A stretch of DNA of 60,000 nucleotides from Callorhinchus milii (GCF_018977255.1 NW_024704742.1:28956001-29016000); one strand, 5' to 3'. Shown: positions 4,640-57,859, counted from the stretch's first letter. A program made the numbers and translations. The notes: generated by a model not told the origin, from the letters alone.

Positions 4640-4674
4640 GTGAGTAGATTTCCAGACCCTCAGTGCTTACATTC

Positions 4675-33387: not shown

Positions 33388-34644
33388 CGATATAACCCTC
33401 TTCTTTATTAACACTGATAACTACAGATTCACTGCATTAGGGGTGCTATCAATGTTAATAAAGAAGAAGGTTGTGCTGTGTTGTGTTAGTGTCTGCTCCC
33501 AAATATATATGAACGTTAAGTAAAGAACACCCCGTACAACACAGTGTGAACTTTTCCATTTCCCACATTAGCGAGACGTCTCTGACTGAGAAATGTGAGT
33601 TTGATCAGATCAATACTGGGCAATGGGTCCACAACCAATAGAAACTTTTTTTGAAAGACGGTCTGGACTTGTTCTGCATCTGTACATCTGTCAGCGAGCA
33701 AGGAAGACTTCAATCCTATTAAAGTTACATGGTTTTAAATCCAGGCCTGCAGAGGTCAAGAAGCAATGTGCTAAACCAGCCACAGCACTGCCCAATCTCA
33801 AAGTACAGCAAGTAGGTTTGCTGTACATTTTCACCTGATCCTTCATCTGATGTGTTGTAGATTAAATAGAAGAGCCACGCGGAACGCTCTGTACTGTTAC
33901 CTTTTCCATTAGGAGCTTTTCCATTTAGTGCAAGTTCTGTCAGTGCTGTGGAAGCAAAAGCTACTGAGCGAAACTCATTTATGAGCTGTCCGCCCAAACC
34001 TAATTATTACAAACCTGTGGCAACTAGCAATGTGGATCTTCTTGTCAAGGGTCAGCCTCTCTGAGGTCTGAGCTCTACTGCTTTCTTTAATAGAGTTTCA
34101 GGCAAACTCCAGTTCTAATGAGAGATTAGAAGCAACAGAGGTCCTTCTGTAATAAAGTGCTCTGTCTCCATTTGGACAGCCATGACTGCGATATTCAGAG
34201 GTAATTACTCCCTTACAGGGAACACGGAGTATTATTGGCATAACCTGGATTTAACAAGGCAAAATTCATAGCATGGCAACTTTGAAAAAAAAACACTTAT
34301 TTAAATTTGAATCAAACTCTTCACAGCGAGCAAACCGATCATCTTTGCTATAAAACCGTTAACCCATCGTGGGCAAAGGCTTTGTTTCAGCACTGAGGTG
34401 AAATAAATTGAGATTTTGTTTCTCACAATATTTATTCCCAAGACATTGCTCCCCAAGAAAGGTTCTGCAGCACTGTAATAACCATAATAATCCTGCTGTT
34501 ATTCCTGTTCACCCTTTCAGCTCTGCGAGTTCATCTTATTGCACGGAACAGGCAGCCAACGCCCAAAGTTCCATTCAACAGTAATAGTGACTGAAGATTG
34601 CATTGAATTGTGAAAAATTCTAATGCCCAGTCTTAATTTGGAGC

Positions 34645-34900
34645 TTTCAGACTCTCTCCCCACCTTTGGAAACTCCATCCCACAGTCCCTTCACCTCGCT
34701 CCCTCCCTTGCCTCCTTCAAGAACTGTCTCAAGACCCTCCTCTTCGACCATGCCTTTGGTTACCTTCCTACCCCTACCCTCCGTGCCCTCCACCCTCCTA
34801 ATCCCAACCCCCAGCTTGGGTCCAAATCCCTAACTGTCCAGCACCTTGGAACTTCCTCCCAGCATGAAAGGTACTATACAAATGCAATTTGTTGTTGTTT
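34645..34900 (+). mobile_element. L2 LINE 3' end
   Basis: NSIPQSLHLAPSLASFKNCLKTLLF, followed by a tail ending ttgttgttg. Confidence 0.85.
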
Positions 34901-35499
34901 CAAAACAAGGTCTATCGGCTGGCCTTAATAGTGAGTTTCTGTTGTATTTCTAAGTAACCACCAAATCTTTCTCTCTCTGATGATGCACTCTCTTCAAAGT
35001 CATTTTCTTTCCTTTCTCATCTAGATCTCTGTCTGTAGCTTGTGTTATCCTCAGCAGACAAAGCTAGTGAGATCCCTGATATGCCCCAGTCACCACTTTA
35101 AATTGGTCAAGGCAGCCTGGCATCATTTGTCCTGCAATTTTCTCACAATTCATTCCGCCCACCCCCAGTCCTCTCTCTCTCTTGGGAAATCCACAGCCTC
35201 CTTTCTCTCAATGCATCTCTGAGCAGGTTGCTTGGCTGCAAGATCAGGAACACAACATTTGGAGATGGATCCTCAGCAAGGCAGTAGGTCTGAAATTGCA
35301 ACACAGTTGGAACAAAAGAACTAAAACTGAAATCTCTCTAATGAGTCCTTTAAGGTGTTGTGTGCACAAGTAAGCACAGCAGCACATCCAGGGAATAAAT
35401 CAGTGCCTGAATCAACTCATTTTTTAAATTGTTCTATGTTCAGTGTTTAAGACATGCAAGGATGCTGATCCGTGGCAGTCCATTGAGAGCCTCACAGTG

Positions 35500-36125
35500 A
35501 CAGACCTGTTGTGGAGTTCAGCTGAGCACCTCTCCTCCTTGGGACAGGGTGTCCTTGGAGCTGAGCTGGCTCCAAGGTGACATGTTTGGCAATGGAATGT
35601 CGGAATCTCATTAACCCTCTGTGGCAGTCTCGGTAATCCATTTCCTGAGCCAGGCAGGTTTGCAGTACTCCAGGGCTTTGCTGATGACAAACCAGCCAGG
35701 TGGCTCGTCGGTAGGACTTGGAAGGGCATATCAGTCACTGGCAGCAAAGTTGTTCCCACTCAGCTCTTATTAATTCTGCAAGCTAAAGCCCTAAGGGATA
35801 GGGTGGTCCTAGCTGAATAAGCAGCGGGAAAGCTTGCCAGGCAGTGCTCTCAATCTTAGGCTTTGCAATTTTAGCTGGTTAAACTCCAGAAGTACCCCAA
35901 AACACACTCTGGGGTCCCCAAAACTTAGCTCTCACCAACCTACATGTAATGTTCTCTGGAATTAGGTAAGCAAGGTGTGTCCCTTTGGGGAGTGAGGGTC
36001 CACTCCATTCTGGGCATAGGGAAATCTCCATGTCTCGGTGTCATACATATGTAGAACTCTGATTTGGATACTCTTAAACATGGTGATGGGTTTCTAGAAG
36101 TGTCAATCACACCGCAGGACCAAAA
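35500..36125. repeat. Unclassified repeat X, near-complete copy
   Basis: Collinear with 500-1075 over about 600 bp. Confidence 0.8.
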
Positions 36126-36871
36126 TATACTCATCCATCCTTGAAGCTCAAACATGCCAAGTGTCAAGGGGGCTGCAGACTTTGGAAGGAAATTAGAAAT
36201 TTCCCTCCTCACAGATGCAAGAAAACTTACCACAAGTGTTTTCACAAATGATGTAAGTGAAGTGAGTTACATTGAGAGCTCTTCCCCTGCAAGAGCAGTG
36301 AGATTACGTTAAGAGCTCTTCCCCTGCAGGAGCACTCGGCCTTTAACACTGTGAGCAGCACACTCAGCCTCTGCCACCAATTTCAAAGAGTGCCCTTGAT
36401 GTCGGCCATTAACTTGAAAACACTGAATATTTTCAGTCAGATAATGTCGGCAGCAGACAGATTCTGTGCATTTCAAATGCAGGATATTCTGAGATCTGAA
36501 TGGAAGAAATAGCTGGAAAATATTCCACATGTAGGAAATTCTATGAATAATTATAGAATATCAATGGCAATTACAAGAAGTAATCCAAGGGATTTCTGAT
36601 AAATTTATGAACATTGAGAGCTAAGAATGATTGGTTCATTAGTGTCGGTAGAAACCTGAAGATTAACACACTGCCTTGATTTTGCTGCTGGTTGTTTAGA
36701 TTTCATTTCCTTTCTCTCCCATTTTATCCCAAGGTTTCCTCTCTTGTTGACAGTCAATCACCCACACTCGGTATGCTACCATTCAGTCCTGCAGTCTTTG
36801 CCCAGAGAAAGATTTTTTTCATATGAATCTAGGCAGAGACTGTAAGCGAGGTGTTCACATGGAACAGAATA

Positions 36872-37197: not shown

Positions 37198-37586
37198 CTC
37201 CTCGGTGCTCTCCATAAGATGTATTTCAGACAATAGTGGGTGGGGAAAGGGAGACTTTTTTTTCATAAATTCCTCCTTTTAACTTGACTTTGAAGAGTTG
37301 GTTTTGTGTCTCAATTGGACAGTGACATGAGGGTAAGTACGACTTGGAGCTACCTTTATGGGCGACATGGGGGAAGGGGACCTAAAATGCGCTATTAGCA
37401 AACAAATCTGCAAATTCCAACTATCTCCAGAAATGTGGTGGTCTGAGCACTTTGTAACCCCTTTCGCATTTGGAGGACTTCTCAGAGTACTTCACAGAAG
37501 GTACTGTAAAGTAGAGTTGACTGTATGTTAGTGGACAAACGCCCACTTAATAAAAGGCAGTACTTATATTGTCTTTATTTTCCTAG

Positions 37587-37712
37587 CCTTGGTGATGTTC
37601 ATTAACAGTATGAGTGTCAGCTGGACTGCAAGGCTACAGATCTTTCTCACCTTCTGCAAACTTGCTGCCATTTTAATAATGGTCATACCTGGAATGATAC
37701 AATTATTTAAAG
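37587..37712 (+). CDS. slc7a11: xCT exon 4 equivalent (126 bp)
   Basis: tttattttcctAG|CC TTG GTG...TTT AAA G|GTgagc. Encodes [42 protein letters not shown]. Absent from the supplied ORF track. Confidence 0.96.
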
Positions 37713-37896
37713 GTGAGCAATACTAAACTAAACATAAATTGTGCTACAATACCAAAATATAAATTATATCCCTGTACTTTATTTACATATAGTTACATTT
37801 CCTGCATCGTATAAAAATAGTACAATGTGTTTTTCTTTCTTTGAGATTGTTTGTTATGTAAAAATAATTTCAGTCTCTGTGTTTAGAATTTAAGAG

Positions 37897-38087
37897 CTAA
37901 TAATCCCTTCAAAAAAGAAAAATGAAAAAAATTGAGTCACTCAATCCACGACTGTTTGTGGGACACTGCTGTGTGCAATTGGCTGCCAAGTCTCACCCAC
38001 AAAATATAGTCCATCCTCTTCACAGTATATTCTGTGAAGTGCTATGATGTGATAAGACGCTAAATCAAATAAGGATTATTATTATTT
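37897..38087 (+). mobile_element. 5'-truncated tRNA SINE in intron 4
   Basis: aatccacgactgtttgtgggacactgctgtg..aaggattattattatt. Confidence 0.85.
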
Positions 38088-38702
38088 AGCTTTGTTCTCA
38101 TATAATGAAAATATCATGACTTTCTCTCTGCCCACTCCCATTAATTTTATCCTTACTCTGGTATTTGTTGGAATACCACAAACTCTGCATGGCCTCTGCC
38201 TTCCCAAGAGGCCATTCTTTATGTGTGAGCCAGACAGTGAGGGTCAGCAACTATTTGACAGATAGGGGAAACATCAAAGCTGACCTTGATCCTGTCCTTA
38301 CGTGGAACCCGAAATTTCCTGTCATTTTAGCCTGTAAGAACATTTCATTTTAGCAAATGGCAGAATTCTGGAAAATAATTAAATTCAGTCTTAATCTGGA
38401 AGTCAGTTTTGCATTTTCAGTTCTTAAAAAGAACTATCTTTGAAGCTAAGGCAGAATTTAAGAATTTTTCACAGTTCTGCACAAACCTTTAGCTTAAAAC
38501 ATTGATTAATTAATCTAAAATTTTAAATTTTAAAATAAAATAACCTGACAGTTTAAGACTAGGTGGATTTTGGGGCTTCTGACATCCATACATGTGCGTT
38601 TGCCATCAGATGTCACTGAGAAAGTCATGATATTTTCATTATATGAGAACAAAGCTAAATAATAATAATCCTGATTTGATTTAGCGTCTTATCACATCAT
38701 AG
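38042..38702. repeat. Inverted repeat with 85-bp arms (38042-38126 / 38618-38702)
   Basis: The arms are reverse complements with 1 mismatch, read directly from the sequence. Confidence 0.95.
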
Positions 38703-38979
38703 GAGAGGAATACTGGCTGATATTTTACTCCATTTACTGATTGATCATTATTGACAATTAGGGCAGACTTCAAAGTCTTTGCCTTCCAAATTAGGACATG
38801 ACTGTTAAGAACCATCATGGCTTTACTTAATTTCAATAAGTTACTTCCAAAGACACAGGCTTTAAACATTGCAAATATTCTCCTTCTTGTCATCCAGATC
38901 ATTTCTTTGTGTCTGCTTCTGTAATAACAGTATTGACATTGCCGGCGATGCTTATTTCGCTTTTCCTTATGTGCCACAG

Positions 38980-39079
38980 GAGAGACGCAAAACTTTAAGG
39001 AATCATTTAGTGTGACAGATGTTAGCATTACAGGATTGCCCCTGGCTTTCTATTCTGGGTTGTATGCTTATGCAGGATG
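38980..39079 (+). CDS. slc7a11: xCT exon 5 equivalent (100 bp)
   Basis: gtgccacAG|GA GAG ACG...GGA TG|GTaagt. Encodes [34 protein letters not shown]. Confidence 0.96.
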
Positions 39080-39594
39080 GTAAGTGCCCTCCCTCCTTCA
39101 CCGACTACCCCATGAAAAAATGAATGCACAGAAATCGAAAGGTAATGTAGCTAACCTGTTTATCTGAGTTTTGATTTCAACTTTGGGTTAGCAGCTTTTT
39201 AATCAAACTGTCCACCTGCACCCTATCCATGATCCAAAATCCAAAATCACAGGCCGTTGCCATTGAGAATAGCATTGGGGTGGGCCTACCTTCTGCACAT
39301 CACAGTGCATTTGACGTAGCAAATATCAAATGTACCTTAGAATACACCACAGCTGCTGCCACAAGATTGGTTTAAATGAAGAAGGCCCTTCGGCCCATCC
39401 AATCTCATCCCTCCAGAACTCCACCACTGATTTAAGCTGCTCTTTAATGTCCTGGTCTCTACCATCTTTCCTGCCACTCATTAATTACCCTCTGGTTAAA
39501 GAAACACATCCTGGTATCTCTCTTGAAATCGCCCTTTACAACTGTAAGCCCTTGTTGTTTTATTCTGTTGACTCTATATTTTTTGGGCTAAACA

Positions 39595-39910
39595 TGGCAG
39601 CCAGTTGCAAACAACAATGTCCTACAAACAGCCATGGAGTGAGTGACCAATTTTATTTGGGGCTTGTTGGCCCAAACACTGGGAGAAACTCCCTTCTCTT
39701 TTCAAGTAGTCCCAAAGGATTTTTAATGTCTACCTGAACAAGCAGACAGGGCCTCATCTCATCTGGAGGACAGCACCTCTAACAAAATAACACACCCCCA
39801 GCACTGCATTCGAGTGTCAATTTAGACTGTGTGATTCGATGTCCTGACGTGGGGCTTAAACCCATAATCTTCTGACTCAGATTGAGTGTGCTACCAATGG
39901 ACCACACTGA
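39595..39910 (-). mobile_element. DeuSINE
   Basis: Similar to 10330-10665. Confidence 0.78.
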
Positions 39911-40984
39911 CATTTGGTTGCATTGTTATCGGAAACCTAGTGGGAAGAATTCTGTTCCCCCAATGACTTGCCTACCACTCCAACTTTGATCAGTAAGGTA
40001 GGCAGGCTTGTCAGTTATCAGCAGTGCCCTGGAGTACTACATACGTGCTTGGCTCCAGTATCGGATCACCTCCCACATAAAAAGTAACAAATTAGTCAGT
40101 AGACAGCAGATTTTACAACTTGTAGTTCTTGCTAATTGGTTATATCAAAGCATTAACAGGTATCACAGCAAGAAGGAAAACAAGACAACCTGCATATTCA
40201 GGACACCTCGGACACCTAGCAGAACTGTTGCTGAACTCTGGAAGTCTATTGTATGACCTCTCCAGCCTTAGGGTTGTCAGAAATGAGATTCAAGTCCGAG
40301 CAGAGTACTGGTCAGTGTGAGACATGTTTGATGGTCTGCACTAACAGTAGGATTGCAGGCAGCTTAGTTTCACTCTTATGCATTTCTATGGATCAAGCAA
40401 AAAACAACTGAGGGTGATCTTTCTCTCAGCTACTTCTGTGCCACTTTGAAGAGGACTATGAGAGCAACTCAGGTTGGCTGTCTGTCCGCTTTGCCTCTTT
40501 TCCTGTTTCCTTAGTTCCCTTCTCCGACAGCCCAGCAATCAAACTAAATGGAGAAACAAGGAGCATCATTGACACCTAGTGATTATTTATCCAGCTGAAG
40601 GCATACTCCTTTGTGAAAAGCTTTTGCTTCTTGACAAAATAAATGAAAGCCATTTCAAAAGCCAAATCACATGGCCTTTCCCACACATTACATAACAGGA
40701 GAAATGGGTTAAGGAAGTGAAAGCATCAGTGCTTTAATTGGACTGGTAGATATTAAATTGTAACTGTAAAAAGAGAGAACAATATGTGTTAAAATAATAT
40801 TATGTACAGCACAGGAATGATGTGAAACATAGACCTGAGCTTGCATTCACAATATGAATGAATGAATTTTGTTATGCATAATTAAAGGTTAGTTTGGCTC
40901 TACTGAAGATGGCCTTTGATAAAGTAGTCCTTTGCTGTTTAGCTTGGTCTTAAGCTAATACTCTGCCTTCCTTATCTTATGCAG

Positions 40985-41029
40985 GTTTTACTTGAATTTT
41001 GTCACCGAGGAGGTAGAAAAGCCAGAGAA
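40985..41029 (+). CDS. slc7a11: xCT exon 6 equivalent (45 bp)
   Basis: cttatcttatgcAG|G TTT TAC TTG...GAG AA|GTgagt. Encodes FYLNFVTEEVEKPE(K) (human FYLNFVTEEVENPEK). Confidence 0.95.
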
Positions 41030-41417
41030 GTGAGTTATAAAAATTAATTCTCTTGCAATTTTTTTTTGTTGCCGGCAAAGAAATGTCTGACAAGCGTTTG
41101 ATGTGTTCAGAAAAATGTTTGTTTTGACCTTTCTTAAAACCAAATATCCCCGTGGTATCCCTGGTCCATACAAGCTGAAATAACATTGCCCTCATGGAAT
41201 ACGGCGCGGTGTGTGCTTCTTCACCCTGGAGTCTAACTTGTGGTCTAAATTTAGAAATTCCTTAAGTATCAAAAATGAATTTCCCATCCCGTATGTTCCA
41301 GAGGCAGACTTTTCTCCACACCCTCTCCTCCAACCCACACGTACTGTTCTCAGTCCTGTCACCCATGAAGCTGGGTTGTTGTTAGTGCTCCATCTGTGCT
41401 CCATCACAGCTATTGAC

Positions 41418-41428
41418 TGCTGACTCAC
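41418..41428. promoter_or_regulatory. Candidate NRF2/sMAF antioxidant response element
   Basis: TGCTGACTCAC, about 390 bp downstream of exon 6. Motif match only. Confidence 0.35.
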
Positions 41429-42364
41429 AGGCAGCTCTACTCTACTCAGAAGTTTTAATGCTCTGATGAAAAAAATGCCACCTGTTCTCGTGGCCATGAG
41501 CATTCATAGCAGTGTTGACTAGCCTGTCTTCCACATATTCTGATAATTGATATTCGATACATTAGAACTTTCTAAAATTTAGTCAGCAAGTGTACAAACA
41601 TTACCTTAAGTTTTTGTTGCTGATAAATGTGTGTTTTGTGGGCACAGGGGTGTGCACCATTGCTGTTTATACTAATTTGCATCTCCTGAGGCAGGAGAGC
41701 ATGTACAGGACTAACTCAGTAAATCTGTTTCATGTTACAGGGGAATGTCAGAGCCTAGAGTGTATTATACATCATTGTCCCTGTATTTTTCTTTCTTTTT
41801 TTCTTTCTTATTTTATTTATATAGTGAAACAAAAAATAATCAATGGCATTCTGAAAGTTCGCCTTGTAATTATTTTTCCTCATTGTAATTTTATTCAGTC
41901 CTTCTAATCAGCAACAATCATTTGTGCACTGATCTTATTCCACAATACGTTCTTTAATATTTTGGACCTAATAAGAGAATTCCCTGTTGAATCCAGGTGG
42001 TGTGATCAATGAGAAAGCATGACAATAAGATCAGAAAATGCCCTCTATGATTTTTCTAAGAACCAATGTGAGAAATTTATTTCTCTCTGTTATAACTGGG
42101 CAATAACTTAAACATACGTGTATTTGATCTAAAAAAAGAGATCTGTCTCACTCCCTGTTAATGTCGGTTGAGGTTTTAGAGAAACATATCAGTGTTTAAT
42201 ATCCCATTTATACAAAGGGAAATGTGCAGATTATCCTCCTCATTGTGCTATATTACTTGTGAAGTATTAGGAGAGAGGCGAGGAATATTATTGTCGAAAG
42301 TGTGTCTCCATATGGAAGATCCACAGAGTATCTTCACTTTCCATGTATATATGGTTATATATAT

Positions 42365-43756: not shown

Positions 43757-44053
43757 ACTACATTCTGCAGACTACATTCTGCCAGTTTGCGAACAGCAAG
43801 GTCCCACCAAAGAATTATAGAATATTGCGGCACAGAAGGAGGCCATTCGGCTCATCGTGCCTGTGACAGCTCTGTGAAAGAGCTATCCAACTAGCCCCAC
43901 TCTTATCCCATAGCGCCACAAATTTTTCCTTTTCAAATCATAGAATTATACAGCACAAAAAGAGGACATTCGGCCCATCATGTCTGTGATGGGTATTATT
44001 TTCAAGTAGCTATCCAATTCCTTTTTGAAAGCAACAATCAAATCTCATTAATT

Positions 44054-44655
44054 TTCATAATTTGTGTGTAAAGCTTGCCTACTGTGATATTATCATCACT
44101 TAAATAATCAAACTGTTGCTATGGGCACAGCAAACAGCTTAGAAAGTAAATATGAATCTTTGGTTGCAGAGGTTACCCACAAATATACACAAATATCCCA
44201 CAAATGTATCCACAAGTTTACCCACAAATATACAGTCAATTCATTTTACAGCATATTCTGTGAAGGGCTTTGAGACGTCTAGAAGACATGAAAAGCGCTA
44301 TATCAAATGCAAGGATTATTATTATTATAAAATACATGACACTAACCAACAGCTATACCCCAGCAGTGCAGTCATTTCTTTTATTCATTGCTCACTCTTC
44401 TCTCCATTTACTGTAATTACTGTGCAAGTTTCTCAGCAGTTTGCACATCTCCTTTTATCAGACCATTCTGTTGCATACACATTTTGAACAGCTGGGTTGC
44501 CATGACATATTTCTTCCTGCTGCGATCTATGGGTAAACTCGGCAACCAAGGATTCATATTTACTTTCTAAGCTGTTTGCTGTGCCCATAGCAACAGTTTG
44601 ATTATTTAAGTGATGATGATATCACAGTAGGCAAGCTTTACACACAAATTATGAA
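44054..44655. repeat. Inverted repeat with 126-bp arms (44054-44179 / 44530-44655)
   Basis: The arms are reverse complements with about 4 mismatches. Confidence 0.95.
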
Positions 44656-46431: not shown

Positions 46432-48258
46432 AGCTTTGTGTACTTGTGACTCGTAGCTCCAGTTTGCTAAGAAAGGAAACACTTTAGCACATTCCACCTA
46501 CTGGCTAGGCCAAGAACTGTTTGAACACATCCGTTTGAGAAAAGTGAGTTCAAGGGTCTCACAACTGCAACTCAAACATGTGATCCTCTGATCACAACAG
46601 ACATCCTCAGCTTCTTGAATTACATGGTGCTAGCGCCCTGACGCTTCTTAAGCAAAGGTGTCTTAAAAATATGAACTGTGCTTATAAGATACACAAAGCC
46701 TGAAATTCTACCTGGTCTTTCTTAAATTTCAAGATCATGCATAATTGTGGAATATTCTTAAAGTCTGTTAATTTGAAAGTTGTTTCTTTTTATGAACTAT
46801 GGTAAACTGGGGGTGGGGGGGGGGTGGTGGGGGGGGAAGGGGGCACGATTGGGGCTGACATTTTTGCAGTCAATATAATTCCAGAAGGTTTTTGTGCAGC
46901 CAATTTTCTGTTTGCCTTTTAACATGCAATAAGCAGGAGGCTTGTTGTTTGTGGCTGCGAATCGGGATATCACACGTCAGCGAAGCAGCTGCCCAGCAAG
47001 CTGGAGATCAGAAAGGCAAGCCAAGCAGAATTGACTTTCTTTTAAGGAAATAACACTGCTCAGTGAGCACTTTTATCTACAATAAGGAGTTACGAGTGAC
47101 TGTCACTTTAATACCCTGGATTACCAGATGGTCCATTGCATTCACTGGCAGCAGTCTACAGCTGGAACAGGCACCAAAAGGGAATCTCTTGTCCACTGAC
47201 CTTAGCTCACAGGATGGAAGTGGAGTGTGTGCTCGAGTAGGTTAAAGGTTAACTGTGCAACACATTGTGTAAGCATGTAGCTTCTGTGAGGTCAACCCAG
47301 ATGGGGACCTCTCAGCTTTTATTTGAATTTTCTCAGGAACTTGAAGCAAGGTGTAAGATTAGGGGGGAAATTCAAAGACCCAGCCAAAAAAGAAATGCGG
47401 TAGGAAAACCATGCCTTTTAGTGATATTTGTAATAAGAGCAGAGGATTAACATTCCCGCATTATACTACAGCATTACTGCTTCCAGTAACCCCAATGTCA
47501 GCAGCAGTATTTCAGTGTTAAAGGGGCATCACTAACCAGGAGCCACCAAGACATGGTTCTAAGAAAGGAAACACTTTGGACTTTGGACTTGAACTCATGT
47601 ACTCTACGCTGACACTCCAGTGCAGTGCTGGAAGTGTGCTGCGCTGTCAGAGGTGCCGTCCTTCGGACAAGACATTAAAACCGAGGTCTTGCCTGTCTGT
47701 TCAGATGATCGTTAAGGTACCCGTGGGACTAATCGAAAAGAATGGGAGTTTCTCCTGGTGTCCTGGCCAACAGCAAAGTCATTACTAGTAGCTTAACATA
47801 AAAGTAGGAACATGTGGGTCAGTAAATTACCATAATGGTCTATTTGTCTTGTGCCAAAGTAAATAAATCATTTTTTTCAAAAGAATAAATAATGCTACAT
47901 TACACTCTCACTCATAGCCCTCAACTGAATTTATAGAAGCTTTTAAACTGCGCTGGTGCTGCTGTTTTCATTGTTGCCGCTGGTGGTGTGGAAGCTGCCC
48001 TGGACTGCAAAGAGGGCAAATTCAAAAACCTCAGGGGCTCCAGTGTGTGATAGAAGCACTTCTTATTCGCAAAGTTTCTGCAAAAGAAAAGGATTGTTTA
48101 TGATTCCATTAAACCTTCAGAGAGTGCTTTACTTCTGCATTCATTTTCCTGTACAAACCCTGTGGCATCAAGCTTTCTGTGTTTTCGAGTTGAGTCAGAG
48201 ACTGGGTAGAAGCATTTGGAGATACTGCATTCTGTTTTGAAACCATTCCCACTTGTGT

Positions 48259-51200
48259 CAACAACAACAACTTGCACTTATACAGTGCCCTCCACACAGG
48301 GCAGCGTCTCAGAGCGCTTAACAGTGGCAGACCTGACTTCAAGTCGGGGTGGGAGGAGGTGACCATAAGCACGGTCAAAAAGGAAAGTTTTCAGGTGGGA
48401 CTTGAAAGAGGACAATGCGGAGAGATTTAAGTTACAGAGCTTTGGGGCACAGTGGCTGAAAACGTGACCTCAGTGGAGTGGAGGGTGCGATGGACAAACA
48501 GGAGGCCAGTGCCAGTTGAGCGGGGGCACCGGGTGGTGGATTAGGGAGTGAGGAGGTCGGAGCGGTAGGGAGGTGCCAGGGAGCGAAGGGATATGAACAT
48601 GAGTGTGAGGAACTTGAATTTGATCTGTTCAGTGATGGGGAGCCAGTGGAGCCTGGCCAGGACTGGTGAAATGGGGATACGGAGTTTGGTCAGGGTCAGT
48701 ATGCAGGCAGCAGAGTTCTGAATGAGCTGGATCTTTTGAATGGTGGAGCTGGGGAAACCAGCGAGGAGTGCATTGGAGTAAATCAAGCGAGAGGGAGGTG
48801 ACAAACACATGCACGCGGGTTTCGGCTGCATTTGGGCTAAGGTATGGTCGGAAACGGGCAATGCGGTGGAGGTGGAAGACGGTCCTGGTCAGGGACCGGA
48901 TATGGGGGAGGAAGGACACCTGGGGGTCAAATCGAACGCCTAGGTTGCGCACTGGTTCAGTGAGTCTGAGGGAGAGCCCAGGGAGTTTGAAGAGTTCAGA
49001 TCCTCAGGAATGAAGACGTTGACTTTGGTCTTGTATATAATAATAATAATAATCCTTGCATTTGATATAGCGCTTTTCACATCTTCTAGACGTCCCAAAG
49101 CGCTTCACAGAATATACTGTAAAGTGAATTGACTGTATATTTGTGGGCGAACGCAGCAGCCAATTGCGCACAGCAGTGTCCCACAAGCAGTCGTAGATTG
49201 AAAATGACCAATTTATTATTGGGTTTTTTTTGGAGGGATTATTATATTCAGCTGCAGGAAGTTTATACTCATCCAGGCCCTGATGTCTGCCAGCCAAGCA
49301 GATAGAACATCGGTGGGCCTGGAGTTGGTACTAGAGGAGGCAAAGTAGATTTGTGTGTCGTCCGCATACATGGGGAAGTTTACCCCGTGTCTGCGGATGA
49401 CATCGCCCAGAGGGAGCATATAGATGAGGAAAAGAAGAGGGCCAAGGATGGAGCCAGGGGTAACCTGCAGGTGACTGCGCAAGAGTGGGAGGAGAAACCA
49501 TTTTCTGAGATCGAGGATGGGTTTTTTAAGGAGGGTGTGATGACAGCGGTTTTTAGGAGGAGTGGAATAGAGCCTGAGGAGAGAGACTGATTGACCATGT
49601 CGGCCAGCAGGGGCGAGTGAAGGGGCAGTTGAGTGACCAGCAGTTGGGTGGGGAGGGAGTCGAGGCAGCAGGCAATGAACTTCATGTGGGTGATTATGGT
49701 TGAGGGAGGAGGGAGAAATGGGGGCAAAGGAGTATAAGGAGGGTTGAGTGGCAGGAGCTGTGACGGAGGGAGAAGGCAGTGTGGATGGTCTGGGTGAGAT
49801 GGAAAGGGACATAGGTGGGGAGGACGATGCAGCCAGGTGGATGTTTTCAATCTTTGAGGCGAAGTGGTCTAGGACCTCTTCACACTTGGGCATTTCATGT
49901 AAGAAGCTAGAGGAGATGCATGGAGGAGGTGATGGATGGTGGAAAACAGTGTAATTGGGTTGTTTTTGGCCTCCACAATAACTTTGGAGTAAAAGTCAGT
50001 TTTGGACTGTGAAAGGGAGAGGCGGTAGGTGTGGAGGTGCTGCCATCTCCTGGATTTCCGCCACCTGCGCTCGAGTATCGGGGTTTGGGTTTTAAGTGAG
50101 CGGTAATGGCTGTTGTACTAGGGGGAGTGGGTGGATTTGGAAACTGCACCTGGAGGGCCAGAGGGAGCAGAGGTCCGAGGAGGAGAGGGCATTTGTGAGG
50201 GACTCAGGGGGGGAGCTTTTTCCAAGGGTGGAAAAAAATGGTAGAGGACTTGGAAGAAGGGAGGGGGATGTGGGAGGGAGATAAAGAAGTGGTCCAAGAT
50301 GGCCTTGTCCGTGATGAACAGGTCAGAAATGCCAAGGCCATGTGTGATGACGAGGTCGAGGGGGTGGCTACGGCTGTGGGTCAGTGAGTTGAGTGGTGCT
50401 CAGTGCAGAGTGACAGGGATGAGAGGGGAGGAAGAGATACCAGTGAGGAAGGAGCCAGGAGGTTTCAGGGGTAGGTAGAAGAGGAGAATTGTGAGAGAGA
50501 GAGAGAGCGAGGAGGGATGGTAGAGGATGAGGTGCTCAAAGGAGGAGAAACAGCCAGAGGATAGGGGATAGACCAAGGGAAGCTTGGGAAATGAGGGCCA
50601 CCCCGCCACCCCATTGGTTGGGACGGGTGGGGGGGTGGTGAAAAGTGTAGCCAGGAGGAGAGGCTTCAATGAGGGGGTCAGGGTCACCAGGGGAGTAAGC
50701 CCAAGAATGTCAATGTGCTCATCCAGGATGAGGTTATGGATCGTAAGGGCTTTATTGCAGAGGGAGTGGACATTTTGGAGGGAGATGCGGAGAGGTTTGC
50801 TGGTGGGGGGATGGAGGAGACAGTGGTATAGAGAGGATTTGGGGTCATGGGGGAGAAATGGCCATGGAGTTTGCGGAGCAGGGATAGTTGGGGAGGGTAC
50901 AGCTGAGGGAAGGGAAGGGGTATTTGCATTTTGGAAGTGGTTGGTGCGGAGAGAGTGAGCGATGGGATAGTTGGGGTGGCTGCTCTGGGACAACCAATGC
51001 CGGGAGCCACGATGGGCCTGGTGGAGGATACCCAGGCAGGAGCAGAGGGAGGTAATGGTGGGTTCCAGGAGAGAGAAGGTGAGGAGGCCGGTGGGAAAGA
51101 AGGACAGAGTGGGAGTAGCAGGGTGTGGGGTTAGGAGCAGGAACATTTTCAGAGGGAGTGGCTCAGGTACGGGCGGCAGCAAAAACACGCACGCAGAGAC

Positions 51201-51360
51201 TGGGAGCAAGCGATCAATGGGGCAGCGTCAGGCCATGGGCTACGGGAGACAGTGCAGGGGAAAGAGGGGTTGGTGATCCTGGTTTAGGCGCCAGAGACAG
51301 GGAGGGAAAGGAGGGAGGACAAGGTAGCAGAAGGGAATCACAGGGAAGTTTCACACACAG
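48259..51360 (-). mobile_element. Long decayed L2 LINE with APE endonuclease and RT remnants
   Basis: LQNVHSLCNKALTIHNLILDEHIDILGLT (APE N-terminus), [37 protein letters not shown] (RT YADD), and RNLGVRFDPQVSF..LARLHWLPITEQIKFK. Has a (caa)n tail, frameshifts and deletions. Confidence 0.93.
49037..49246 (-). mobile_element. tRNA SINE 3' half inserted into the L2 RT region
   Basis: SINE consensus tail interrupts L2 ORF2 after ..NFLQLN. Confidence 0.9.
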
Positions 51361-51431
51361 CAGGGCTGTCGAAGTGAAAGTATCATGTCTCCTGGGCTCC
51401 CTCAGTAAATTTTTCTCCTAATAATACGTAA

Positions 51432-52229
51432 TCTATACTAATAAAATGACAATGTCTGTCGGTCTGCATGCACTTCAAGAAGGATCTCCATAACTGATTG
51501 ACATAGAGATATGATTTTACCTCATTGGAAAGGTCTTGTACCTGGGAGTGACATGTGCTTATTTCTTTTGGGGTATCTCCTATCGTTCATGAATTATGAT
51601 CTAAAATGTATTTCAGTTTTGCGTCTTTCACTGCAGTTACGCCTGGTGGCCATTAAAATGGCGTGGTGGCATTGTGGGTCATGGAGTATGTACGTGTGTA
51701 CGCACTGCAATTTCACCCGGTGGCCACCTGGCTGACCGTGGCATTGTGCCATCCTGCGTCACAGAGCACGCACGTAGTTAAGCGGCGGCGGGAACAAAAT
51801 AAAGAACACAAACAATGCTAAGCCACGGCAACAAACAACAAAACTACATTTTTAAAGTGCCTTTCACATCGGGAGGACGTCCCAGTGGTTATAAATTACA
51901 CATTTATATTTCTCATTAGAAAGATGGCTAAGTAAAAATCAAACGTTTCAAGGAGAAGTAAAAATGCTAGACAAAAGAGAGAAGGCCCATTAAATGAAAC
52001 TGAAGAAAAAGAACAGCGCGGCTGCACTTCAGTGCTGAAAGGAATGCAACAGCGCGCCAAAATGAGTTGCCACTCCAAGAACAGCACGGCCAAAATGAAT
52101 CCTCCCACAGGCGTTCTCCCAAATGAGTATAGATAAAGATGAAATGTCTATCTGTGTGTCTGTCTGTGTGTCAATCTACATTCCATATTGGATCCTTGGA
52201 GAAAGCCTAGCTGCAATGGGCATAGCTAG
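51432..52229 (+). mobile_element. Probable non-autonomous Helitron
   Basis: 5' A|TCTATACTAATAAAA and 3' gcctagctgcaatgggcatagCTAG|T. Inserted between A and T with no target-site duplication. The interior is CpG-rich. Confidence 0.7.
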
Positions 52230-53869
52230 TGTATATAAAGAGAGCGGAAAAACACTTGCATGTTGCAAATGCAGCACAGTGTGCGGAGATTTTTAAACCA
52301 ATTTTTATGTGGTGAGAGAACAAGTGTGAGAGAAAGCGCTGGCTCTGAATGTGGAGGTTTGGAGGCAGACAATTTAGAGAATCCTTTGAAAATGTATGGA
52401 TTTCATAAATTTATAATGGTTGTAATCAGTAAAACAGAAACCAAATCTACTGGGAAGAGGCTGTTCAACCAACTCAGCTGTCATTTGGGATTAGACTGTG
52501 TTTACCAGGTTAGGGAAAGCTCAATTACATAGGCTGTACAGGACAGAAGCAGACCACGCTGGTGTTTATACTCCACATGAGTCTCCACCTACCGCTTACT
52601 CCCTCCCATACCCTTCTATTCCCCTCTCCCTCATGTGTATAATCATACCATCTGTGCACTAATTGGATGTTGCGTTTGCCAACAAATACACCGTTACTAT
52701 ACTTCGCAGTAAAATCCCGTGAAGCACTTTAAGATGCCTCAGTGATATGATAAGGCACTATACTGAACTTAATGATTATTAACTATTATTATTATTGTCT
52801 AGTATCCATTTGATGAGTATGCTGGAGTAACTAGACTGCAGTTTATTATATGGAATCTATAATCCTTGCCTAGCACCTTATCACATCATCAAAACAACTC
52901 AAACCGCTTCAGAGAAATGACTTTAAAGTATAGTGACTGTGTATTTGCAGGTAAATATTTGTATGTTAACATCTCATCCAAAGGACAATGCCTCTGGTCA
53001 TCTTAGACTAATAATAATAATCTATGAGTTCAAAATCCAGACTTGGGGCTTGAACGCATAGCCTGCTGACTCGGAGGGGAGAGTGCTACCAACTGAACCC
53101 ACCTAGCACAGCCAAACAGATTTACCGGTACTTGGCATAGTATTGCATTTTGCAGACTCCCAAATATGTGCTCTTCGGACTCACAAAGAAAAGGTATGAC
53201 ATATTTCAAAGGAATAAGACGATTACAGTCAGCAGTGAGTCTACTGAGAAATAATGATGCTCTTGCTTTGACCATTTTTGAGCCTGAAACACATCCAGTC
53301 TATTAGAAATTGAAGAAGCTCAGATGAACTATACCTGATGCAATACTGAGGAATGTTCCTGATCAACACTCAGCAGACTACCAGGAAATGAGCACAGATG
53401 GATGCACAGCGACCTGACATTGGGGAGATTAGATGCATCAGAACAACCAGAGCTTCGGAGACCACAGATGTGTCCATCCCGTATGGACACTTCTAACAAA
53501 TGGCGGTTCTTTTATGCGAGCATCAAACTCAAGAGTCTCACGAATCCAAGGGGTCCTAGGGACATGCTTGCTCACAGTTCCTCAGATGTTTCACATAAAA
53601 CGGTGAGTCTTGATTGCTATGATGAAAACAAAATCAATCCTGAATTACCATTGATTCAGCAGGCTGAATAAGCAAAGCACAGCTCTGTCTGACCTGTTTA
53701 ACAGGTCGCCTCCATGCTGAGGTGTGAGTTATTTGCCTGCATTCCCCCACCCAACTCCCACTCCTTCCACCAACCATAGAGAAGTAACGACAGCTAACCA
53801 ATTCATATCCTGACAGAACTAGTCATTGAAGTAGATATAGATTAAGCCTTAACCTACCCTTGTTCACTC

Positions 53870-54640
53870 ACTCCAGTTTGATTCAGTTGGCAGAACTCTC
53901 ACCTGTGAGTAAGGCAGTTGTGAATTCAAGCTTCATGTTGCAATTTTGAGGTTATCGTCTTGGTTAACATTTCAATGTAGTGCAGGGGAATGCTGCATTA
54001 TATGCAACAACAACAACAAAATTACAGTGATAGAGCACCTTTCACGTTGGGAGGACATCCCAAAGCATTGGACAGTCAAGGTTCGGGATCCGAGCATGGG
54101 GGAGAGATGGAATAGGAGTGAGGGAAGGCAGAGAGGTGGAAGGGTGACTGAAGGCACGATCGAAGAGAAGGGTCTTGAGACCGGCCTTGAAGGAGGCAAG
54201 AGAGGAAGCGAGACAAAGGGACTGTGAGATGGAGTTCCAGAGTGTGGGGGCAGAGAGGCTGAAAGCCCGGCCACTGATGATAGGGCGGGTTGGACAGAAC
54301 TGGACCCTGCTGAACGGAGGGAGTGGGCAGGTTGGTAGGGAAGTGCCGCTGTGCCGACCTTCAGATAAGACAATAAATTGAGATCCTATCTGTCTGTTCA
54401 TGTGGATGTTAAAGATCCCAAGTTCTATTCAAAAAGAGAATGCAGTTTTCCAGGTGTCTTGACCAACAATCCGCCAGATAAAATTGGTCATTTACTTCAG
54501 GTTGTTTGTGGGACACTACTGTGCACAAATTTGGCTACCATGTTTGCCTAATAATAACAATCACAATAATTCACTGAAATGTTGTAAAGCACTTTAAGAC
54601 ATACTAAATATTATAGGTACTATATCAAAGGCTTATTGTT
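53870..54640 (+). mobile_element. DeuSINE split by an inverted L2 3' end (54005-54340)
   Basis: Head at 53880-54000 and Deu domain at 54340-54470 flank a minus-strand L2 tail. Confidence 0.78.
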
Positions 54641-55514
54641 TAATCAGTTATGAGGAAGAATTGAGATTAACCATTATATACAGGCATGGCAAGTGTCCAT
54701 GTGGAAGCGAGTGACAGCTGACACTTGCATAATTACTGGGGGATGCAAGCAAACATATAACTGTGGACAAGTATTAACTCTCACAAGTGCCCATATTCAC
54801 AACACCTATAACTAAATAAAATACTCTGGTTTGTTTTTGGAAGGTGGGGTTGCAGTGTTGCCTGCATCCGAACAGTCTCCCAATTATCTTGGACACTCTG
54901 GGCAAGAGTCAACTGGTTATCCTCTGAAAATCTATTCTTCCTTTTGGAAGGACCTCCTTTAATCTTAGCTCCACCCCAGCCATGGTTGTGGTTCATTTCC
55001 TGTTTAAATCATTATACATAAACATCAGACATGTTCCGCTCACAGTTATCACCTTGTTGTAACTTCTTAACCCAGAAGCATAAACTTGTTCTGAAAATGG
55101 CAACGGTCAGGCCGACTGATTTTGAGCTTGGCACAGACTGACACTCACAAAGGGGAACACCGCATCGTTAACGCTTTTTTAGTAGGCAACATAAATGGAA
55201 AATTTTATGTTTCAATCAGAGGAAGCATCGGTACCAAAGCCCATGAACAAAGTTGACACACATATCTATATGTGTGTCAACATATAGATCACATAATATC
55301 AATCAGCTGATTCTACTTTCAGTTTAGTACAAAATACCTAAGCCAGCGCTTCTTTGGCGTTGCCCAACAGCTTTACTTTTAGGGGAGGCACGTATTTAAC
55401 TGGGAGAAGCAGATGAGAAGGATGCATTACATTAAATCTGATACAGCTGTTCTGTGAGTAGGGGAGAGATTAGCTGGTGACGGCAACGTGTTATCACATT
55501 CTTATAGATAAAAG

Positions 55515-55651
55515 ATACTCCTGAGTGAGGATATTTTTCTCCCAGTATTGCTCAGTCTGCGTGCTTTATGTATCTATGTATGTATCTTATAGATACATAA
55601 AGCATACAAACTGAGCAATACTGGGAGAAAAATGTCCTCACTCAGGAGTAT
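55515..55651. repeat. Long hairpin with 63-bp arms and an 11-nt loop
   Basis: 55515-55577 versus 55589-55651, with 4 transition differences. Confidence 0.95.
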
Positions 55652-55699
55652 TGTGATTTATGGCATTGTAAAAGGGATAAACATTGTAATTGTTTTGTA

Positions 55700-56140
55700 A
55701 GAAGAGGCCGTTTATCTTATTCTGCCAATTTATTGCATCGCAATACATCTATTAATCCCATTTCCCCTACCTTTTCTCCATATTCTCTTTAGTCTTATTT
55801 CCCAAGTATCTATTTGCCTCCCTTTCAATCCCAATTGTCTCTGTGTCTGCTGTGCCTACTGCATTCCAGATTCTCACAGCTGTCTTCATGAAGATATGTT
55901 TTCTGATCTCACTTCATTCTGTTTGAGCTCTAATTTTAAAACTGTCTCCTCTTCTTTTGGATCTCTCTAACCCAACGAGGGATCCAAACCTTGCACTGTC
56001 TAGTTTGTCAATTCCTTTCATTATCTTGAACACCTCAATTAGATCATCCCTTAACCTCCTCAATTCTATCTTTACTTAACCTTCATCATTTCTAAACTTC
56101 TTCGCTCCAGGTATTACTCTGCTGAATCATTCTTGAATAC
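55700..56140 (-). mobile_element. Decayed CR1 fragment
   Basis: gcattccagattctcac and ttgaacacctcaattagatcatcccttaacctcct motifs. Confidence 0.65.
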
Positions 56141-57859
56141 ACTTGGATAAAATAAAGTTGCGTAGAATTCGCCTATGTCGATTTCTGTAATAAAGGATTA
56201 TTACTATATTATTATAAGATTAGGTTAGGGCCAATCCATAATAATGCACCCCATATGGGTCCACTTACAACATAGTACTCTGTGATCTATGACGGAAGGT
56301 CAGTACAATTCCGGCTTCTGTGGCTGACTGGACAGCGTATTGCGCATAATGATCCTGACATTTGGTATAGTGTCTTTCACATCGAGAGGACATGCCAAAG
56401 TGCTTCATCGGATGTAGTGTAAAGTGCAGTGAGAGTGCGTTTTGTGGATAATAATAATAATAATGAATGTGGCATAGTGCATTTTGCACAGGAATTGCAC
56501 TTCACAGGATTTACTCTAAAGTGTAGTGACTATGTATTTTCTCGGAATGTGAGGAAGTAGTTTTCCAGTTGTACTGAGATTTGTAGAATGGCTTTTGACT
56601 CGGCTATTGCAAAACATAAACCCTTATTAATTGAGGATAGAGTGGAACCATTGGGTTAAGAAATGGAGGGCATCCAGTGATGACTCTTCAGATAAATACC
56701 TCAAATAAATAGTTTTAGGTAGGACAAGAGGCAGAGGAGCTTATAGGATGATCTGATTGGATATGCCATTGATTTATCAATCCTCCCAGCATGTCAGGAA
56801 CTGAACATGGCGGGAAGGCTAAGGGGGATGGGAGAGAGCAAATTTCAGATTGTTGTCCCCAGTGCTTTCACACCACTCCTGACGTACATTGCACATCACC
56901 ATAGTAAGAGACCCAGGACTAGGTCTCTCTCCAATCTCTCACCTGCACAAGAGGAGACCCATTTCTGGGAGGAGAAATGAAAATTAATCAGCAGATGTAT
57001 AATGGTGAAGACTGAAGACAGATGGGACTATGAATAGGCTGATGGTGTATATTGGGGTGGGGAGGGAGCAAATAAGATCATTGGAGGAGACTAACCATCA
57101 GCCCTCAGACTGGTACAGCGAGTTAGAGGTGAAATGGAGGAGACCTGGTTGCAATTTGATAGATAGGTCCCCAAGAAAGAAGATTGAGTGAAAAGCTGAG
57201 AGAGAAATGAAGACAGCAACTGACAGGTGACTGAGCGAGTGAGTGAAAGTAGAGTGCAAAGGAGAGGCAGGTACGAGAGACAGACAGCAGGGAAACTGAG
57301 CTGCATCATTAATTCTCAAAACAGCAGCTAAGAGCCCCAGTGAAACAGGTTGGTGCAATCTCAATCCTGGTATCAGCAATGGTACGTTCACAGCACACAA
57401 CCAAACCCAACCCAAGGAGCACAATGTGGAAACTAATTGTTACGATTGACTCTTCTGAGATTCAGGAATGTAGACGGATTCCTGAACTACACAGACCTTG
57501 CTTGGAGAAGGTCAAACACTGTTACAATATGCAAAAAGTCAGAGCTAGTCTTTCCCCCAGTACTGTCATACCTCCTTCTTCCCTCGAGCAAAGGAATCAT
57601 TTTACTCTAGCACAAAGGTGGAAAGTGAAGATTTTGAATTAGTACTTAATTAATCTCTGTAGAGATGGGCTCTCTTTCTGAGCAGATTTCTCTCCGTTTG
57701 AAATTCCATGAAGTAAAATAAAGTCGCGTAGAATTCACCTCTGTCAATTTCTGTAATAAAGGACCACTGAAAGCAAAATAAGTCCAATCTAATCTACACA
57801 GTAATAACCTTAGATGACCGACAGGATACTAAGACATCATCTCGGATACACTGTTTTTC

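Follow-up and report, generated by a model that had tools for sequence, protein, structure and literature searches.

Six pairs of closely similar sequences lie in introns 3, 4 and 6 of slc7a11 in Callorhinchus milii, and we regard them as probably independent, fixed and old germline scars of microhomology-primed template switching that arose by more than one route. The window, by which we mean the whole 60,000-nucleotide stretch that was analysed, carries exons of this elephant-shark amino-acid transporter gene; for exon 2, the best PDB match is a cystine/glutamate transporter. The exon numbers are deduced from the place of each exon in the protein.

4513..4639, plus strand: slc7a11 (xCT) coding exon 2; tblastn, 43/43 residues identical to C. 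milii UniRef P0002; AG/GT edges
13094..13209, plus strand: exon 3; tblastn, splice edges
37587..37712, plus strand: exon 4; tblastn, splice edges
38980..39079, plus strand: exon 5; 34/34 residues identical, splice edges
40985..41029, plus strand: exon 6; 15/15 residues identical

An exon after exon 6 was not found by tblastn within the window, and intron 6 extends to the window end.

Local copies in the introns

All six pairs of the original prediction (cases A to F) were recovered, and no two cases share sequence, in agreement with its claim that the arms do not resemble each other. They are listed here with two extra cases, G and H; the parts of case C are given further below.

33394..33472, no strand: case A, imperfect hairpin in intron 3; arms 33394-33419 / 33447-33472, 24/26, loop 27
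38042..38126, plus strand: case B source arm (ancestral); SINE end (37898-38086), about 45 nt, and 40 nt of unique intron 4
38618..38702, minus strand: case B new arm; inverted 85-nt copy; GAGA begins the arm and also follows it
55252..55281, no strand: case D, perfect 14-bp hairpin; arms 55252-55265 / 55268-55281, 14/14
55500..55651, no strand: case E, 63-bp hairpin; arms 55515-55577 / 55589-55651, 59/63, loop 11
55694..56147, minus strand: old CR1-like 3′ fragment between E and F; reverse-transcriptase homology to 56138; edges partly hand-drawn
56148..56197, plus strand: case F left copy, putatively the new one; runs into an 11-letter SINE-tail motif at 56193; within X14 record 16
57714..57763, plus strand: case F right copy, putative source; single-copy depth, within X14 and X16 contigs covering 57576-57800
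46467..46485, plus strand: extra case G, copy 1; exact 19-nt repeat in direct orientation; a young SINE tail lies 35 nt ahead of it
47559..47577, plus strand: extra case G, copy 2; followed after 8 nt by a 5′-truncated old SINE (47585-47772)
14806..14852, no strand: extra case H, within part of an old SINE tail; perfect 21-bp hairpin whose left arm stands in place of family sequence

Case A pairs well only in its outer 26 bp (76.5% over the entire 79 nt) and lies 6 nt from a minus-strand SINE head (33260-33388), on its 5′ side. The arms of case B (38042-38126 / 38618-38702) are inverted, match at 84/85 positions and are separated by a gap of 491. The copy starts inside a SINE, part of which belongs to the copied sequence, and no element lies beside the new arm; the description of the copied DNA as mostly unique does not fit this case, in which about 45 of the 85 nt are SINE tail. 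Case D is partly (CA)/(TA)/(TG) simple sequence, with the nearest element 413 nt away. Case E has an 11-nt direct repeat (55500-55510 and 55585-55595), an 11-mer found nowhere else in the window, and its centre is slipped; the left arm is probably the new one. An X14 contig (55532-56526) covers case E from 55532 onward, with 5 differences and no gap. Case F is a direct pair (46/50). The motif at 56193 into which its left copy runs has 15 occurrences in the window; of the others on the plus strand, the 8 shown are SINE tails or tail-like. Few relatives at 80% or more were found in the bin that holds the 3′ part of the neighbouring CR1-like fragment. For case G, a target-site duplication of a 1.07-kb insertion was rejected, as another organism (organism C) aligns to 46733-47338 inside it.

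At any distance, 12 non-family pairs in the window have an ungapped score of at least 16. The seven that score at least 18 are all less than 1.6 kb apart, with none farther, and all lie within 33394-57763, while the five distant pairs score only 16-17. An order-4 Markov null (40 runs) gives 0.025 local pairs of score at least 18 per window against the 7 observed, so that the pairs clearly exceed a control of the shuffled type. At positions 1-33,393, no non-family pair scoring at least 18 was found, and only the hairpin of case H is present. Clustering within 24.4 kb has P = 0.027 for seven of seven and P = 0.11 for seven of eight. The original prediction thus describes the densest portion of the window. 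Across the pairs, the arms diverge by about 1-8%.

Several other candidates were not accepted as local copies. The pair 32894-33009/33262-33377 consists of nested SINEs (81%, a family-level pair), 6693-6896/7021-7227 is a family-level SINE pair (87%), 32084/32448 belongs to a SINE family, with 24 nt also identical in two distant copies, and 58554-58619 represents tail-to-tail SINE fragments (24/27). The SINEs of the window have tRNA-Ala-like heads and a common 3′ tail.

Case C, the outgroup and transposon junctions

Case C is an inverted pair (44054-44179 / 44530-44655; 122/126, gap 350) with the following parts.

43817..44046, minus strand: old 3′ pieces of CR1-like sequence, to the left of case C; 72-83% to the other copies in the window; right edge hand-drawn
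44054..44179, minus strand: putative new arm; inverted 126-nt copy of 44530-44655
44180..44220, plus strand: stutter of about 12-nt units between the arm and the SINE; TRF 44174-44233, period 12, 5.2 copies
44221..44328, plus strand: 5′-truncated CmiSINE-like 3′ fragment; 92% to 42562-42667
44530..44655, plus strand: source arm (ancestral); X4 record 25 covers 44334-44685, 20/352 differences, gapless

In the stutter, SINE-like and template-like units alternate on the cDNA strand. The left junction carries a small repeat, and no repeat is present at the outer ends. The SINE is absent from the related species, in which X4 record 25 fits from 44334 only and continues for 184 letters further left. 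The copied arm probably arrived together with the CmiSINE insertion. The SINE differs from the window consensus at 7/109 positions, somewhat above the arm-based prediction for a joint arrival.

The outgroup data cover cases B and C. In both, one arm is ancestral: the source arm is present in a related species, and the arms are closer to each other than the orthologues are. For case B, the related species (organism B) aligns to 38074-38440 in place, that is, to the left arm, and depth at 38106 in this source arm is single-copy. The arms of B differ at 1/85 positions versus at least 19/238 between orthologues (P = 0.03), and those of C at 4/126 versus 20/352 (P = 0.35); for both cases pooled, the greater similarity of the arms has P = 0.02. 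The aligned pieces listed, short ones excluded, suggest that the new arms of B and C are missing in the related species; the end of the piece near B is ambiguous (38616 or 38548).

Four of the six cases had been described as abutting SINE or CR1 ends. The distance to a block end is at most 10 nt in 3/6 cases (A, 6 nt; C, 8 nt; F, 1 nt), where the CR1 edges at C and F were drawn by hand after the arms had been seen, and B has no such end. A test of block-end distances (P = 0.005-0.03 for the six cases) was discarded as circular because of these two hand-drawn edges, and for this reason we relied on an unbiased flank test. The proposed enrichment at transposon junctions did not emerge from it: 3/37 SINE 5′ flanks carry a local copy versus 3.7% of 300 random flanks (P = 0.15), in a test of low power whose random-flank control includes the cases themselves. 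With C masked out, the count is 2/36 testable 5′ flanks (P = 0.38), and 3/35 for 3′ flanks. In B, D and E, the copy does not lie beside the 5′ end of a co-arriving element. For C and F, a twin-priming scheme in which CR1 and SINE would start at opposite ends of one break was set aside because the CR1 pieces are only 63-83% similar to window copies, with few relatives at 80% or more, while the arms differ by 3-8%. The CR1 pieces thus predate the arms by far, and a role for CR1 is likewise not supported.

Mechanism and competing explanations

Both mechanisms named in the original prediction fit, each to a different case. The sequence of case C looks like the product of a template switch at the 5′ end of a SINE mobilised by L2, and that of case E like repeated snap-back synthesis of the polymerase-theta or synthesis-dependent MMEJ (SD-MMEJ) type. 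Junction microhomology or repeated priming is seen in C (the last unit of the stutter has 10 letters in common with the inner end of the template), in E (the 11-nt repeat and the slipped centre) and in B (4 nt); none is evident in A or D. The combination of junction microhomology and stutter points to microhomology-primed template switching.

We propose that a free 3′ DNA end would pair over a few bases with nearby sequence, copy 14-126 nt, release, often re-prime several times, and rejoin. In C, and probably in A and F, an inserting CmiSINE mobilised by L2 would have supplied the free end: either the truncated end of its cDNA or the opposite end of the target would have copied the flank before the 5′ junction closed. 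In B, D, E and H, the free end may instead have been exposed at a break or a replication fork, with no element involved. The order of the priming steps and the direction of copying in A, E and F are those that we infer, as is any choice of enzyme; polymerase theta, a replicative polymerase and the L2 reverse transcriptase are not separable from sequence. The copies are most likely neutral. Very slow substitution in this lineage would explain why the scars can still be recognised; the elephant shark has the slowest neutral rate among the vertebrates tested (PMC3964593). Ages are relative only, since the two rates given in PMC5499810 differ six-fold. A process that is still active in the lineage, as had been claimed, is not supported: the arms differ by 1.2-8%, those seen are present in other samples, and no empty allele occurs among the pieces listed.

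Assembly errors are an extremely improbable source of the copies. The arms of A and D and the left arm of C are absent among the independent-run pieces listed, which would permit such an error, but the right arm of B, case E and both copies of F are contained in contigs of other samples, 1-4 differences separate the arms, unlike those of a chimeric read, and four 2025 samples contain 0.77-0.82 of the words of 37500-45500. An X16 contig (38618-39089, 0 differences) joins the new arm of B to exon 5. Contigs of two other samples carry the arms of B, E and F near single-copy depth, and these arms are therefore neither assembly errors nor high-copy MITE ends. It is very unlikely, too, that some fold-backs (E, perhaps A) are low-copy non-autonomous elements, either a MITE inserted at TA or a Penelope-type fold-back. 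A TA lies just inside each arm end of E, the D/E bin permits up to about 17 further copies, and case A is outside the read-depth data. However, 11 letters of the flank to the left of E recur in its centre, which is unexpected for an incoming element; Rfam identified no hammerhead family, with only 5 tRNA matches in the window, and the hammerhead core motif is absent from A-E. Nor is any sequence common to two cases. Depth limits the number of further copies to about 4 for the right arm of C, whose bin has roughly double the single-copy depth, to 3-4 for F and to about 17 for the D/E bin, with B single-copy. The layout also departs from that of a MITE, as B starts inside a SINE, C has no outer repeat and one arm of each is already in place in the related species. 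The claim of templated local copies that are neither one MITE family nor artefacts is thus supported; its further statement that a target-site-duplication signature is missing is not strictly correct for B, which has a 4-nt end repeat, or for E with its 11-nt direct repeat.

Selection might alternatively have maintained the hairpins for their RNA structure, whether as editing substrates, as splicing modulators or as new microRNA precursors, which we consider slightly less probable still than the element explanation. E folds as a 137-nt hairpin (-103 kcal/mol), the B and C duplexes reach -128 and -214 kcal/mol, and template switches can create RNA stems (PMC8794818; PMC10710096). Conversely, no exon lies in any loop, the scattered arm mismatches fit neutral decay, no match of the hairpins to Rfam was found, and none of the 18 runs that contain the stretch searched is an RNA run. 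Nearby inverted SINE pairs in the same pre-mRNA form longer and more stable duplexes (-289 to -311 versus -17 to -214 kcal/mol), and the emphasis that had been placed on dsRNA from the copies appears misplaced.

Known systems and the rate in holocephalans

Microhomology-primed template switching at these sites agrees with mutation types described elsewhere. In zebrafish, about half of ZfL2-2 copies have extra 5′ nucleotides, many from the flanks (PMC4245944; PMC2666801). Case C, and probably A and F, resemble this L2/SINE class in that a 5′-truncated element is joined through flank-copied sequence with microhomology; unlike it, they concern a SINE in a holocephalan germline, and in C 126 nt were copied from 200-330 nt downstream rather than "several" nucleotides. 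Human L1 insertions can likewise carry sequence templated near the site (PMC11702581), the retroelement being fused to an inverted or direct local copy of less than 250 bp, but these are somatic or from cell culture, rare (22 templated cases among 3,598 insertions; 10.1101/2024.08.27.596794) and typically templated within 15 bp. SD-MMEJ and polymerase-theta insertions (PMC5728401; PMC7165422; PMC2943611) are like E and the stutter of C, with snap-back giving inverted copies, loop-out giving direct copies, and several rounds; priming in those assays occurs within tens of bases of the break, whereas B, C and F reach 350-1,500 nt. Short-range template-switch mutations of the four-point model (PMC7954356; PMC5453318) and the germline MMB-TIs of people (PMC8421209) are similar to A, D, E and H, which are inverted 14-63 nt copies beside their template in perfect or near-perfect hairpins. 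In apes, 4,017 template switches are described, with a median length of 12 nt and none longer than 128 nt (PMC7954356); the per-substitution count seems higher here, although the two are not comparable. With templates of at most 15 bp in tumour L1 cases and, by design, at most 100 bp for MMB-TIs, the 350-1,500 nt that separate B, C, F and G from their templates are beyond the usual published distance. The window SINEs are similar, by description only, to the L2-2_CM-mobilised CmiSINEs (SINE2-1_CM, SINE2B-1_CM) and SacSINE1-CM (PMC5499810). The cases add intronic examples to mutation types already known, and nothing points to a function. In case C, a cartilaginous fish provides a clean example, anchored by an outgroup, of a SINE that captured DNA from its flank on insertion. 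Among the papers listed in full-text literature searches, which lay largely outside subscription journals, we found no report of such flank capture by a SINE in this group.

The high density that had been claimed holds as an excess over the null, but the window was chosen for this feature and its first 33 kb hold one case; among the papers listed in a literature search, no usable baseline of inverted-repeat densities across vertebrates was found. We consider it rather unlikely that holocephalans make long templated insertions far more often per substitution than mammals, as a lineage-specific rate of the same mechanism class; the insertions would come from a host repair route that deals with ordinary breaks as well as with the abundant L2/SINE insertions. 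It is similarly doubtful that, per substitution, their germlines produce templated insertions of 20-130 nt with a reach of up to 1.5 kb at tens of times the frequency seen in apes, partly as a by-product of L2/CmiSINE 5′ junction sealing. Seven events of at least 19 nt, with arms at least 92% alike, occur in 60 kb, or roughly one per 350 substitutions versus about one per 20,000 in apes, a rough 25-50-fold excess that uses the ape count of PMC7954356 and a background figure for the total of ape substitutions. A rate above that of apes is possible, and there may be more events than slow decay by itself accounts for. In fish, the L2 junction route depends on the host (PMC4245944), and more than 300,000 CmiSINE copies are reported (PMC5499810). 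Against a higher rate stand the reliance on a single window, the short-range ape method with a threshold that its authors call conservative, so that the comparison is not like for like, and the at least 34 of 37 testable SINE 5′ flanks with no long local copy.

If such a rate were confirmed, the elephant-shark genome would preserve the traces of one repair pathway in great number and with slow decay, and many thousands of events would then be available from which to read template distance, orientation and priming steps. The arrangement that C and F have in common (an old minus-strand CR1 end, copied filler and a plus-strand SINE tail) would then indicate a preferred target or a deletion-coupled route. 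A real excess in a genome-wide comparison scaled to rate would provide a large natural data set for the mechanics of templated insertion and would show how the use of repair pathways differs among vertebrate germlines.

Local copy pairs and their presence in other samples

The original prediction placed six local copy pairs in the window (cases A–F, all inverted except F). All six were found at their places, with identities from 14/14 (D) to 122/126 (C). The follow-up added G and H, together with several short doublets.

Local copies in the window, with intron placement
33394–33472, A, inverted, 24/26 identical, intron 3
38042–38126/38618–38702, B, inverted, 84/85, intron 4
44054–44179/44530–44655, C, inverted, 122/126, intron 6
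55252–55281, D, inverted, 14/14, intron 6
55515–55577/55589–55651, E, inverted, 59/63, intron 6
56148–56197/57714–57763, F, direct, 46/50, intron 6
46467–46485/47559–47577, G, 19-nt exact direct repeat, 1.07 kb apart
14806–14852, H, perfect 21-bp hairpin within a SINE tail
36261–36334, tandem doublet of 37-nt units
43756–43782, tandem doublet, 14-nt, at an element tail
7203–7249, tandem doublet, 22-nt, at an element tail
29617–29645, 12-bp perfect hairpin

After removal of pairs with an arm consisting mostly of family repeat or simple repeat, 12 pairs score at least 16 at any distance. Seven score at least 18 (A, B, C, E, F, G and the tandem doublet at 36275–36334), all less than 1.6 kb apart, and the five distant pairs score just 16–17. 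In forty order-4 Markov sequences, local pairs of score at least 18 averaged 0.025 per run. The pairs are explained by nearness, not dispersal. The pairs lie far above this null but are unevenly spread: positions 1–33,393 contain only H, and clustering within 24.4 kb gives P = 0.027 for seven of seven pairs and P = 0.11 for seven of eight. The window itself was picked for the feature, and the density figures are those of a chosen stretch.

Five of the 24 listed sequencing runs contain 0.77–0.82 of the words of 37500–45500. Contigs of two of these (X14 and X16) and of two runs from other organisms (X4 and X10) were aligned on 37850–57800, a stretch that excludes A; the figures rest on the pieces listed, which are part of the total. 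An X16 contig covers 38618–39089 with 0 differences, running from the right arm of B, present in full, across the outer junction and through exon 5. The contig breaks off at the arm's inner edge, the point at which an assembly graph forks if both arms exist. An X14 contig spans 55532–56526 with five differences and no gap and takes in the left F copy along with most of E, and contigs of both runs span 57576–57800, hence the right copy of F. The right arm of B, most of E and both copies of F are therefore not assembly artefacts; D and the left arm of C are absent from the listed pieces. Single-copy depth is ~12 and ~8 in the two runs. Bin depths set upper bounds on extra copies of ~4 for the right arm of C, 3–4 for F and 17 for the D/E bin, which also contains CR1 sequence, and position 38106 in the B arm is at single-copy depth. 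These bounds indicate low-copy sequence, not the ends of a high-copy family.

The host gene and predicted RNA pairing

The window sits within slc7a11, the cystine/glutamate transporter gene, on the plus strand.

Exons of slc7a11 in the window, compared with C. milii protein P0002
4513–4639, +, exon 2, letter-for-letter match; best match to human xCT structures
13094–13209, +, exon 3, match except edge residues
37587–37712, +, exon 4, match except edge residues
38980–39079, +, exon 5, letter-for-letter match
40985–41029, +, exon 6, letter-for-letter match

For exon 2, C. milii is the best match among 261 homologues. The UniRef model P0044 takes intron 2 sequence at 4640–4730 as coding, which is probably a prediction error. 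No exon lies inside any A–F loop.

Of the proposed dsRNA-forming structures, those of B, C and E are predicted to form, with pre-mRNA pairing energies of -128, -214 and -103 kcal/mol, respectively; A and D are weak. However, inverted SINE pairs of the same transcript reach -289 to -311 kcal/mol, and family repeats make up 18 of the 20 inverted pairs listed within 7 kb. Rfam returned tRNA-like SINE heads only, and no RNA run among the listed runs contained the searched stretch. As far as the sequence goes, an RNA function of the hairpins does not appear to be indicated.

Transposons and the anatomy of the junctions

Roughly a third of the window consists of SINE, L2 and CR1 sequences. The heads of the SINEs are tRNA-Ala-like, and the elements fit, by description, the CmiSINE and SacSINE1-CM of PMC5499810, which are mobilised by L2-2_CM. 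The youngest subfamily is represented by 6687–6874 and 46245–46432, which are 98.4% alike; the depth of this pair relative to single copy (depth, not copy number) is ~3x higher in organism A than in the related organism B. A long decayed minus-strand L2 fragment at 48259–51400 carries a young SINE at 49034–49245. At 32362–33388, a minus-strand SINE is split by a full-length plus-strand copy, and the 81% inverted pair there is a mimic arising from the nested SINEs, not a local duplication. Between two old SINE bodies 7 kb apart, a 27-nt exact inverted match (24888–24914/32018–32044) could represent either a conserved core or a conversion tract.

The copies were said to lie often at transposon junctions, four of them abutting SINE or CR1 ends. 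Three of the six are within 10 nt of a block end (0.56 expected, P = 0.012), two of these edges being drawn by hand. In an unbiased test of 56 SINE blocks (exact local match of at least 14 nt), 2 of 36 testable 5' flanks matched, or 3 of 37 including C, which was masked out, versus 3.7% of 300 random flanks (P = 0.38 and 0.15); 3' flanks matched in 3 of 35. The junction link appears good for C alone and plausible for A and F, with no general rule.

Along the cDNA strand of C, a SINE fragment end is followed by six letters of template from 200 nt downstream, several SINE-like units and the 126-nt copy. AGTTTACCCA is common to the last stutter unit and the end of the template, and at the left junction the first letters of the arm recur in a short repeat. 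We propose that a truncated cDNA end would re-prime several times before joining, with both the SINE and the exposed downstream-flank strand serving as templates. In F, the left copy and the end of CR1 coding homology are 10 nt apart; the copy continues into the SINE-tail motif AAGGATTATTA and may represent a minimal SINE insertion in which synthesis jumped to a template 1.5 kb away. C (43817–44328) and F (55694–56215) have similar layouts: an old minus-strand CR1 end, templated filler and a plus-strand SINE 3' piece. At both, the CR1 appears far older than the filler, which would mean either that CR1 ends of this kind are where SINEs land or that the remainder of the CR1 was deleted by the event. 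CR1 pieces, whose age far exceeds that of the arms, are an unlikely cause of the copies. A minus-strand SINE has its head 6 nt from A.

The remaining cases differ. B has no element within 500 nt besides the copied tail; its new arm opens with GAGA, which also directly follows the arm, a pattern that four-base priming or a staggered break would produce. D has no element nearby. In E, TCTTATAGATA has just two occurrences, at 55500 and 55585, and a slipped repeat forms the centre; one strand would have folded back on itself, re-primed, copied ~60 nt and returned to its start. H overwrites the part of an old SINE tail that holds the stem-loop. It is read as a template switch, and because it replaces family sequence its direction is known. 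Of the G copies, one lies behind a young SINE tail; the other precedes an old, truncated SINE that has a 7-nt stutter. Target-site duplication was rejected for G.

Direction, age and rate

Organism B is inferred to be another holocephalan. Its gapless alignment to 44334–44685 (20 differences in 352) shows that the right arm of C is ancestral. The organism B record extends 184 letters further left without continuing into the SINE at 44221–44328, which therefore arrived later. Organism B also aligns to 38074–38440; the first 238 nt differ at 19 or more positions, and at two of these, within the B arm, the two elephant-shark arms are identical. The source of the copy is the left arm of B, which begins within an older SINE. 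Orthologous alignment thus identified the ancestral arms of B and C, but not the absence of the second arms: none of the listed organism B pieces covers the left arm of C, and all exceed 200 nt, so absence there is unproven; the end of another piece, 34 letters from 38582, falls ambiguously at 38616 (beside the new arm of B) or 38548. Arms are closer to each other than orthologues are (B, P = 0.03; C, P = 0.35; pooled, P = 0.02), so both copies are younger than the split from organism B. A, E and F, with 6–8% arm difference, are about as old as that split, with wide intervals.

At the rates of 1.0–1.1 × 10^-3 and 1.6 × 10^-4 per site per million years given in PMC5499810, arm differences of 1.2–8% correspond to ~6–40 or 37–250 million years. 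The published divergence within Callorhinchus is 15.5 million years (PMC11521621) and that from Chimaera ~187 million years (PMC12952989), and the C. milii neutral rate is described as the lowest among vertebrates tested (PMC3964593). The process had been called lineage-active; these are old events, with no sign of present activity.

Seven events of at least 19 nt (A, B, C, E, F, G and H), with arms at least 92% alike, over a span of at most ~2,400 substitutions in 60 kb, give ~1 event per 350 substitutions. The ape substitution total is some 70–80 million. With 4,017 short template switches reported in apes (PMC7954356), this gives 1 per 20,000. A rate of templated insertion specific to holocephalans is unlikely. 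The methods differ, the ape threshold is conservative according to its authors (PMC7954356), and the window is a chosen outlier, so the gap is a lead, not a result. Full-text literature searches found, among the papers listed, no reports of such copies in cartilaginous fish.

Templated local copying is supported. All layouts found have precedents in the accounts consulted: L2 5' junctions with extra nucleotides taken from the flank (PMC4245944, PMC2666801), L1 sites with templated insertions (PMC11702581; 10.1101/2024.08.27.596794), SD-MMEJ of the snap-back and loop-out kinds (PMC5728401), the ape switches and germline MMB-TIs (PMC8421209). Compared with these, the window cases reach 350–1,500 nt and are perhaps more numerous. 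The local duplications are real, old, low-copy and of mixed origin, and they are new examples of known mutation types, every layout being covered by these published precedents taken together.
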